From NCBI RefSeq assembly GCF_045037415.1, contig NZ_CP173438.1: a stretch of 64,000 nucleotides of DNA; one strand, 5' to 3'. Below are positions 19,760-20,362 of this stretch, piece by piece. Source of the stretch: Escherichia coli (GTDB lineage: Bacteria > Pseudomonadota > Gammaproteobacteria > Enterobacterales > Enterobacteriaceae). The first letter of the stretch is position 1; each line of letters opens with the position of its first letter. The translations under genes were made by a program, and so were the position numbers. The notes beneath the pieces were generated by a model, which made no database searches, was not told where the DNA came from, and saw only the letters and a list, made by a program, of their open reading frames with translations.

Positions 19760-20050
19760 CTAACGGTTAAGTGCTTGCAGCACATGTTGCGGATCATTGG
19801 CAATCGCTCGCAGCAAAGCCTTTGCAGGCCCGGTCGGTGAACGTCGCCCCTGCTCCCAGTTACGCAACGTGTCTACGCTTACGGAAATAAGATCGGCAAA
19901 TTTAGATTGTGACAACCCTGAAGCGCGGCGTATTTCTTTGATTTTCATAGCATCAACTTCAAAAGTCCGTGAAGGCTGTCGCGTTCCTTCAATAATTTCA
20001 TTCATCTGGGCCATGCTGTGAGTCAACCGCTCAAAAAGTGCCTTATCCAT
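19760..20050 (-). CDS. XRE-family HTH antitoxin (HigA-like)
   Basis: 96 aa; HTH segment IKEIRRASGLSQSKFADLISVSVDTLRNWEQGRRSP; start codon abuts upstream toxin stop with gaggtgg SD inside toxin 3' end. Confidence 0.8.
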   Translation of the reverse strand: MDKALFERLTHSMAQMNEIIEGTRQPSRTFEVDAMKIKEIRRASGLSQSKFADLISVSVDTLRNWEQGRRSPTGPAKALLRAIANDPQHVLQALNR

Positions 20051-20362
20051 TTACCACCTCGTATTTAACAACCGGAGCATTGCTTTTTCCTGGGGAGACA
20101 GATCATCTTTAATACCCTTACGATAAATAAGCAGTAATCTGATCTCATAATGTTTAACCTGATGAAAGTAAATAACCCTGACACCAGCACGTTTCCCCTT
20201 TCCTCCTGAGACCCATCGAACCTTTCTTAACCCACCAGTTTCAGGTATTACCTCACCATAGTCAGGATTCAAGGCCAGGAAAAACTGAAAACGACTGAAT
20301 TCATCGTCGTTCAGCAGTTTTTGAACATCTTCAGTAAAAATTTCCGTTTCGATGAAGAGCAT
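20051..20362 (-). CDS. RelE/ParE-superfamily toxin (HigB-like), upstream of its antitoxin
   Basis: 103 aa; GLRKVRW...GKGKRAGVRVIYF...LLLIYRKG pattern typical of RelE/HigB-type toxins; toxin-first gene order. Confidence 0.72.
   Translation of the reverse strand: MLFIETEIFTEDVQKLLNDDEFSRFQFFLALNPDYGEVIPETGGLRKVRWVSGGKGKRAGVRVIYFHQVKHYEIRLLLIYRKGIKDDLSPQEKAMLRLLNTRW

Follow-up and report, generated by a model that had tools for sequence, protein, structure and literature searches.

Members of the HigB-2/HigA-2 family of type II toxin-antitoxin (TA) systems have been described in Vibrio cholerae and Acinetobacter baumannii, and the Salmonella pair SehC/SehD has been named in print. Hadzi et al. 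2017 (PMC5416850) demonstrated that V. cholerae HigB-2 cleaves mRNA in a ribosome-dependent manner through an active site similar to that of RelE, in which replacement of Arg51, Arg64, Tyr82, or Lys84 by alanine reduces activity 170- to 3000-fold; the N-terminus of its antitoxin, HigA-2, was shown experimentally in the same study to fold upon toxin binding into a helix and a strand. The operator of V. cholerae HigA-2, which has been both footprinted and crystallised, is TGTACGC-N5-GCGTACA (PMC11006873). A. baumannii HigB2 is an RNase that is neutralised by HigA2, and HigA2 represses its own promoter; stabilisation of plasmids by this pair has been shown as well (PMC5906591). SehCD was scored as a functional TA pair in S. 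Typhimurium (Lobato-Marquez et al. 2015, PMC4366850). HigB toxins of the Rts1/K-12 type, on the other hand, have no C-terminal helix, and in structure they are related to HigB2 only distantly (PMC5416850). In Escherichia coli, HigB-2/HigA-2 are already listed in Prokka-style annotations of isolates (PMC10304320). Here we analysed a gene pair at positions 19760 to 20362 of a 64,000-nucleotide stretch of an E. coli genome (NCBI RefSeq assembly GCF_045037415.1, contig NZ_CP173438.1; the whole stretch is referred to as the window), which we consider, with good confidence, to be a functional chromosomal type II TA operon that belongs to the HigB-2/HigA-2 family and has Salmonella sehCD as its orthologue. 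As a two-gene TA operon of an already characterised type, the pair is genuine but ordinary.

In the six-frame list of open reading frames (ORFs), both genes lie on the minus strand, with the toxin gene first and the antitoxin gene directly downstream. The toxin gene (20051..20362; 103 aa, ATG start) specifies a HigB-2/SehC-type protein of predicted RelE fold, a putative ribosome-dependent mRNA endonuclease; the antitoxin gene (19760..20050; 96 aa, ATG start) specifies a HigA-2/SehD/NadS-type protein with an N-terminal predicted toxin-binding segment followed by a C-terminal XRE helix-turn-helix (HTH) dimerisation and DNA-binding domain. An earlier note on this DNA, written from the letters alone, had placed a 103-aa toxin directly upstream of a 96-aa XRE-HTH protein at these same coordinates, though it omitted the strand. 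It had also described abutting toxin stop and antitoxin start codons and an antitoxin Shine-Dalgarno (SD) sequence inside the toxin 3' end, and the junction reads accordingly on the minus strand as ...ACGAGGTGG TAA ATG GAT AAG..., with the toxin stop at 20053-20051 followed at once by the antitoxin start at 20050-20048 and with a GAGGTGG sequence, read as the antitoxin SD, at 20054..20060 (GAGG at 20060-20057) within the final toxin codons. The order of toxin and then HTH protein was found in all 15 loci inspected, namely the window, the Salmonella chromosome, 10 plasmids, one phage, and two IMG/VR contigs.

Sequence comparison places the toxin in the HigB-2/HigA-2 lineage (V. cholerae VCA0468/9; PF06296 lineage; Salmonella SehCD) and not in that of Rts1/K-12 HigB. 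A phmmer search of the Protein Data Bank (PDB) matched residues 2-99 of the 103 toxin residues to V. cholerae HigB-2 (5JA8/5JAA) with an E-value of 1.6e-19. At E<=1 the only matches were five V. cholerae HigB-2 sequences (1.6e-19 to 1.6e-18), and no solved HigB (Proteus or E. coli), RelE, YoeB, YafQ, or MqsR was found in this search at that cut-off. Toxin residues R49, R62, Y80, and K82 align to R51, R64, Y82, and K84 of V. cholerae HigB-2, i.e., to its four experimentally defined active-site residues, and this tetrad shows no variation across the 14 aligned members of the family (the E. coli protein and 13 relatives from chromosomes, plasmids, and phages). In an AlphaFold2 (AF2) model based on 14 toxin-linker-antitoxin fusions in a paired alignment, the predicted local distance difference test score (pLDDT) is approximately 90 across the toxin, which is modelled with strands at residues 2-5, 45-50, 61-68, and 73-81 and helices at 7-16, 19-31, and 90-103. 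The top Foldseek matches of this model were the HigB2 chains 8A0X_C, 5JA8, and 5JAA_D (template modelling (TM) score 0.80-0.85, root-mean-square deviation 1.6-2.7 A), followed by M. tuberculosis and E. coli RelE (TM about 0.66), and the toxin is thus predicted to adopt a RelE/BECR fold with a C-terminal helix. The earlier proposal of a RelE-superfamily toxin, which was to fall if another type of fold were predicted, is therefore upheld by both sequence match and predicted fold. Its description of the pair as HigB/HigA-like is correct as to a type II TA system with toxin-first order and needs refinement as to family, to HigB-2/HigA-2. Membership in the Rts1/K-12 HigB family was considered and rejected, as the toxin showed no PF05015 match at E<=0.01 and no PDB HigB chain at E<=1; a ParE-type gyrase poison was likewise rejected, as there was no PF05016 match and the RNase tetrad is conserved.

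With regard to the antitoxin, the protein matches Pfam HTH_3 (7.5e-10), which bears out the HTH half of a domain search that the earlier note had suggested, and it narrowly exceeds the cut-off of the NCBIfam equivalog NadS, NF041265 (60.7 bits against 60, residues 5-89). Among PDB sequences it matches HigA-2 with an E-value of 1.8e-8, residues 31-89 aligning against 38-96. The N-terminal 30 residues do not align to V. cholerae HigA-2 by phmmer; the pattern LF..L..SM.E...I..G is common to the N-termini of 14 antitoxins. When fused to the toxin in the AF2 model, antitoxin residues 1-31 were predicted with pLDDT values of 86-98 as a helix (residues 3-21) and a strand (28-31), whereas the same residues of the antitoxin modelled alone with the same homologues had pLDDT values of 58-68 and the strand was gone. 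This difference between models is an indication that the antitoxin N-terminus becomes ordered with the toxin in a manner that parallels the folding upon binding of V. cholerae HigA-2. An MqsA-type antitoxin (TIGR03830) was rejected, since the score was 39.1 against 61.8 bits, only the HTH part was matched, and the 96 residues include no cysteines. The antitoxin gene is named nadS in RefSeq, as antitoxins in other loci of the family often are, and the strains examined share an identical protein, WP_000356397.1; a literature search on the origin of the name NadS found nothing relevant. A separate nadS gene (RS26030) was annotated by PGAP in E. coli K-12 BW25113, with first expression evidence (PMC12350097), and K-12 may thus hold an orphan NadS-family HTH gene elsewhere in its genome.

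Upstream of the pair, an inverted-repeat search identified a perfect 8-1-8 palindrome, GTACGTCA-N-TGACGTAC, at 20400..20416, 38-54 nt upstream of the toxin ATG, which we designate the putative operator O1. Its pattern occurs once in the window as compared to 0.05 occurrences expected by chance, and its core, GTACG-N7-CGTAC, equals the V. cholerae HigA-2 operator at the motif level in both half-sites and spacing. Other E. coli alleles keep the core, as do Salmonella sehCD and one relative with 59% toxin identity. A possible second, degenerate operator, O2 (CTAAG-N7-CGTAT, containing GCCA-A-TGGC), was read from the sequence at 20367..20383, centred 33 bp from O1; it may likewise be bound by the antitoxin, and it sits in a 16-nt block, TAAGCCAATGGCGTAT, that is identical in Salmonella. 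Within TTGTTACTCT, the window allele differs from other E. coli alleles by a G in place of their A. Downstream, 36 nt past the antitoxin stop, an inverted repeat at 19678..19724 (minus strand) would form a stable hairpin followed by UUUU and represents a candidate operon terminator; its predicted RNA fold has an energy of -31.1 kcal/mol (z = -2.7), and a simple terminator scan did not call it. An Rfam search of 18300-21600 gave nothing relevant, with a lone sub-threshold Thr_leader match at 18788-18888.

Taken together with what is known of the relatives, these features suggest a mechanism. By homology to V. cholerae HigB2, the RelE-fold toxin would enter the ribosomal A site and cut translating mRNA via R49, R62, Y80, and K82, while the antitoxin, whose translation should be well served by the GAGG within the toxin 3' end, would inactivate the toxin as its N-terminal ~30 residues fold onto it as a helix and a beta-strand. 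The XRE-HTH dimer would bind GTACG-N7-CGTAC upstream of the operon and thereby repress transcription, and loss of the labile antitoxin would free the toxin to arrest translation. RNase activity, neutralisation, autorepression through DNA binding, lability of the antitoxin, and toxicity are all expected here by analogy with these relatives.

Both proteins appear to have been kept by selection. Against the Salmonella orthologues, the proportion of nonsynonymous differences (pN) is 0.16 in the toxin and 0.09 in the antitoxin, while synonymous sites are saturated (pS approximately 0.78 in the toxin/antitoxin comparison), giving pN/pS values of 0.21 and 0.12, respectively; because pN is this low against saturated pS, the comparison with Salmonella indicates that purifying selection acts on toxin and antitoxin alike. 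The wider family is widespread on plasmids, with tblastn placing the toxin family on 881 plasmid records, mostly at 37-50% identity, led by the genera Acinetobacter (307 records), Ralstonia (102), Klebsiella (98), and Salmonella (46). Nine records of a phage collection also carried the toxin family, several of these being bacterial contigs in fact, and a scan of IMG/VR with the toxin alignment found two loci only, which gives no support for a phage origin; these two loci served as extra family members.

The TA pair lies in the interval between fdhE and fabY (yiiD), and divergent from it is a gene for an alpha/beta-hydrolase (20591..21499, plus strand; Pfam Abhydrolase_3, 4.5e-69), which belongs to its context and is not part of the TA system. 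The gene order in the window is fdhE, a ribbon-helix-helix (RHH) gene, a DUF6708 gene, a gene for a hypothetical protein, a yiiE-like RHH gene, two small ORFs, antitoxin, toxin, hydrolase, fabY (yiiD), dtd, and yihY. In Salmonella enterica, the corresponding interval reads yiiD, sehB, sehA, hydrolase (STM4032), toxin, antitoxin (STM4033), and fdhE; the window proteins are 71% (toxin, SehC), 87% (antitoxin, SehD), and 76% (hydrolase, STM4032) identical to their Salmonella counterparts, and the hydrolase and the TA pair, which share a 228-bp control region, remain paired across genera. K-12 was said in the earlier note to have no such module at this locus, and this is correct: MG1655 has the order fabY, an 852-bp fabY-yiiE gap, yiiE, yiiF, and fdhE, with no TA genes between fabY (yiiD) and yiiE, and by BLAST a 475-bp AT-rich stretch takes the place of window positions 19159-21562. 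O157:H7 has a transposase and a hypothetical gene at that fabY-yiiE spot. Among 5,426 complete E. coli genomes, the TA region (at least 80% coverage, 95-100% identity) was present in 2,635, or approximately 49%, and 3,138 of its 3,140 placements were chromosomal. The hydrolase gene was present in 2,636 of these genomes, a number so close to that for the TA region that both must travel as one block. The K-12-type filler of 466 bp was present in 3,056 genomes; as 2,636 and 3,056 together exceed 5,426, a few hundred genomes carry both the hydrolase-TA haplotype and the filler.

A LexA-box-like sequence, CTGTACATTCATACAG, was observed at 20559-20574, where it overlaps a -10-like TATAAA (20552-20557) immediately 5' of the hydrolase start (ATG at 20579 or 20591); Salmonella keeps it as CTGTACATACATACAG. 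The pattern CTGT-N8-ACAG occurs only once in the window, at this site, but 0.73 occurrences are expected by chance. We take the sequence to be a close likeness of the sulA SOS box, and on this motif the hydrolase gene, and possibly the shared control region too, might be SOS-regulated. A literature search for LexA control of STM4032 found nothing.

Several observations weigh against a fully functional E. coli operon. The toxin scores 17.7 bits on Pfam PF06296 (RelE), under the gathering threshold of 27, so that the toxin half of the suggested domain search yielded only a sub-threshold match, and no NCBIfam model matches it. Since Salmonella SehC fails as well (20.9 bits) while HigB2 of V. cholerae (33.5), HigB2 of A. 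baumannii (49.4), and a Klebsiella plasmid copy from K. variicola (34.4) pass, the low PF06296 score reflects the sensitivity of the model for the enterobacterial branch and does not count against homology. The intact toxin (WP_000897302.1 / WP_000897305.1) is mostly a "hypothetical protein" in PGAP/RefSeq, because it misses every HMM cut-off, and that label is the only point in favour of reading the pair as ORFs that arose by chance or as decayed pseudogenes, a notion to which we give virtually no weight given homology E-values of 1e-19 to 1e-8, intact ORFs, an operon structure kept in 15 of 15 loci, and purifying selection on both genes. The structural model of the pair comes from fused chains, a computational device, and was read through pLDDT, secondary structure, and fold matches. 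The literature searched contained no experiment on the E. coli proteins, and one study of Salmonella SehC (De la Cruz et al. 2013, PMC3868539) reported growth in liquid culture without a phenotype; that study, the sole detailed one on sehCD, has been retracted and was used as a lead only, with orthology and palindromes re-derived from the sequence. Finally, frameshifted or truncated toxins occur in some E. coli lineages, and the toxin start has no recognisable SD and follows by one base a consensus TATAAT hexamer (20364..20369, minus strand), at the position of which Salmonella has TATGGAAT. A sigma-70 consensus scan of 19000-20700 gave no site and no convincing promoter. Inspection by eye yielded no more than weak or awkward candidates, among them TTGTTG-16-TATAAT, whose start would fall downstream of the toxin ATG. 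These features could mean that the module is attenuated or domesticated, with toxin made poorly or not at all in E. coli, an HTH protein that acts mainly as a transcription factor, maybe regulating the divergent hydrolase, and a pair that is no longer addictive. The loss of the GGA-containing leader seen in Salmonella, the contrast between broken toxins in several lineages and an invariant WP_000356397.1, the reported lack of a sehCD deletion phenotype in the retracted study, and the retention across genera of the hydrolase-TA pairing with its shared control region would all fit such a state. We nonetheless regard it as unlikely, as at least 1000 contigs carry an intact and identical toxin, its catalytic tetrad is invariant, its pN/pS with synonymous sites saturated speaks for selection still acting on this protein, the Salmonella pair SehCD was scored as functional (PMC4366850), and toxin-first modules normally translate their toxin weakly. 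A more specific form of this idea follows from the consensus -10 one base from the toxin ATG, the lost Salmonella leader, and the toxin without an SD, i.e., that rewiring of the E. coli operon has moved the transcription start into the first codons of the toxin, which yields an antitoxin-only message and leaves HigA-2/NadS domesticated, repressing the shared control region. We find this quite improbable; if it were true, an esterase that responds to SOS through its sulA-like LexA box would be tied to a former TA module.

The earlier note had also taken the module to mark the fdhE-yiiD islet as mobile or defence-type DNA, and a main role in anti-phage abortive infection or in stabilising a mobile or defence islet has some circumstantial appeal: the G+C content of the interval is 35-48% compared to 52-57% in the flanks, the interval is strain-variable and has a transposase in O157, the family is common on plasmids and present on a few phages, and RelE/ParE toxins have been discussed as defence toxins (10.1101/2025.01.28.635273). 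However, no integrase, transposase, recombinase, or tRNA junction is annotated between fdhE and fabY, and among eight islet proteins searched against PADLOC-DB 2.0 the toxin and six neighbours had no match while the antitoxin showed only generic HTH similarity. Relatives on plasmids and phages reach no more than 37-50% identity, and placements are almost exclusively chromosomal. Such a role is therefore very unlikely, and the claim of the note is not sustained. Because the block occupies the same position in Salmonella, is found in 49% of E. coli, and is accompanied by no mobility or defence gene, the hydrolase-TA segment is best read as a presence/absence polymorphism of long standing that has been passed on largely by vertical descent, within an intergenic hotspot of variation at which K-12 carries an alternative haplotype. 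For the pair itself, a functional TA operon of the HigB-2/HigA-2 family thus remains our preferred explanation.

Other features of the interval were observed alongside the TA pair. Between the antitoxin gene and the yiiE-like gene, a basic, Cys-rich 70-aa ORF (MTRNRAERRHH...CICSCWMCGH...; 19463-19675, minus strand) is preceded by a strong AGGAG SD 8 nt upstream, which sits in the 3' arm of the candidate TA-operon terminator hairpin. This ORF is WP_000197774.1 in some RefSeq genomes and unannotated in others; it has no Pfam or PADLOC match and is absent from the Salmonella locus. A 92-aa ORF at 19123-19401 (minus strand) corresponds to WP_001296612.1, a hypothetical protein with no family match, and its 3' part falls within a region 79% similar to K-12. 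Paralogous CopG/RHH genes, yiiE- and yiiF-like, with related upstream sequences, lie at 18508-18753 and about 16179-16421 (both minus strand); K-12 5915-6516 is only 79% identical to window positions 18502-19158, compared to 96% on the yiiF side. Between these two RHH genes, and inserted relative to K-12, the segment 16710-18323 (plus strand) encodes a 282-aa DUF6708 protein and another of 246 aa that has no family match. It has the lowest G+C content of the interval (approximately 35%), and a 10-kb query that includes it was covered to at least 80% in only approximately 615 of the 5,426 genomes. On the other side of the hydrolase, Salmonella has a second, unrelated TA system, sehAB (STM4031-STM4030; locus coordinates 4014-4732), between yiiD and the hydrolase, where the E. 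coli window has 63 bp (21500-21562).

In kind and in annotation the finding is already known, because databases name these exact proteins HigB-2 and HigA-2: in public collections (at least 1000 contigs) they are called "type II toxin-antitoxin system RelE/ParE family toxin", "Toxin HigB-2", and "Antitoxin HigA-2". PGAP for its part applies the label "type II toxin-antitoxin system RelE/ParE family toxin" to frameshifted toxin copies; examples of RefSeq toxin annotations, intact or frameshifted, are those at 7052-7363 of locus L001 and 3352-3664 of locus L003. As the family has been characterised structurally and biochemically and the Salmonella orthologue named in print, the discovery value is small. 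TA censuses that rely on PGAP or on Pfam thresholds will nevertheless miss this system in half the species (approximately 2,600 genomes), and TA catalogues based on K-12 are not representative of E. coli where this locus is concerned. The hydrolase-TA block is a clean and ancient presence/absence polymorphism, and it might be used as a natural experiment on the fitness contribution of a chromosomal TA system.

Among the known systems with which the E. coli pair can be compared, Rts1 and K-12 HigB-HigA (PF05015) share the name and are likewise toxin-first with an HTH antitoxin, but their toxin is of a different family. E. coli K-12 RelE has the same RelE fold (Foldseek TM approximately 0.66-0.68) and an analogous active-site layout, and A-site mRNA cleavage is presumed to be alike; RelE/RelB differs in a toxin identity of approximately 10% with no sequence match at E<=1, in antitoxin-first order, and in an antitoxin, RelB, that is an RHH and not an HTH protein. 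The A. baumannii HigB2/HigA2 pair (pAB120 type) belongs to the same family and has the same gene order, with a toxin approximately 44% identical and a NadS-annotated antitoxin, yet it is plasmid-borne, its genes overlap, and its toxin reaches 49 bits on PF06296, which the E. coli toxin fails. V. cholerae HigB-2/HigA-2 (VCA0468/VCA0469; PDB 5JA8, 5JAA, 8A0X) is likewise a toxin-first operon with the same predicted fold and the same Arg/Arg/Tyr/Lys site; the toxins align over their full length at approximately 42% identity (35-42% in Foldseek alignments), the antitoxins share an N-terminal toxin-binding segment (predicted in E. coli) and a C-terminal XRE-HTH domain, and the operator half-sites GTACG...CGTAC have identical spacing. 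The two differ in that the V. cholerae pair resides in the superintegron whereas the E. coli pair occupies a fixed enterobacterial chromosomal site beside an esterase gene, in that the E. coli toxin is 7 aa shorter at its ends and falls short of the PF06296 threshold that V. cholerae HigB2 passes, and in an extra degenerate palindrome in E. coli as opposed to the single V. cholerae operator. Compared with Salmonella, E. coli lacks the sehAB genes that separate yiiD from the hydrolase there, and additional small ORFs together with genes of the yiiE/yiiF type separate its TA pair from fdhE. The leader is altered as well, with TATAAT in place of TATGGAAT and a difference in the -10-like TACTAT. 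Salmonella SehC/SehD (STM4032.2N-STM4033; SL3979-SL3980) is nevertheless the positional orthologue of the E. coli pair, located in the same fdhE-yiiD interval, divergent from the same STM4032-type hydrolase, and with both palindromes kept.

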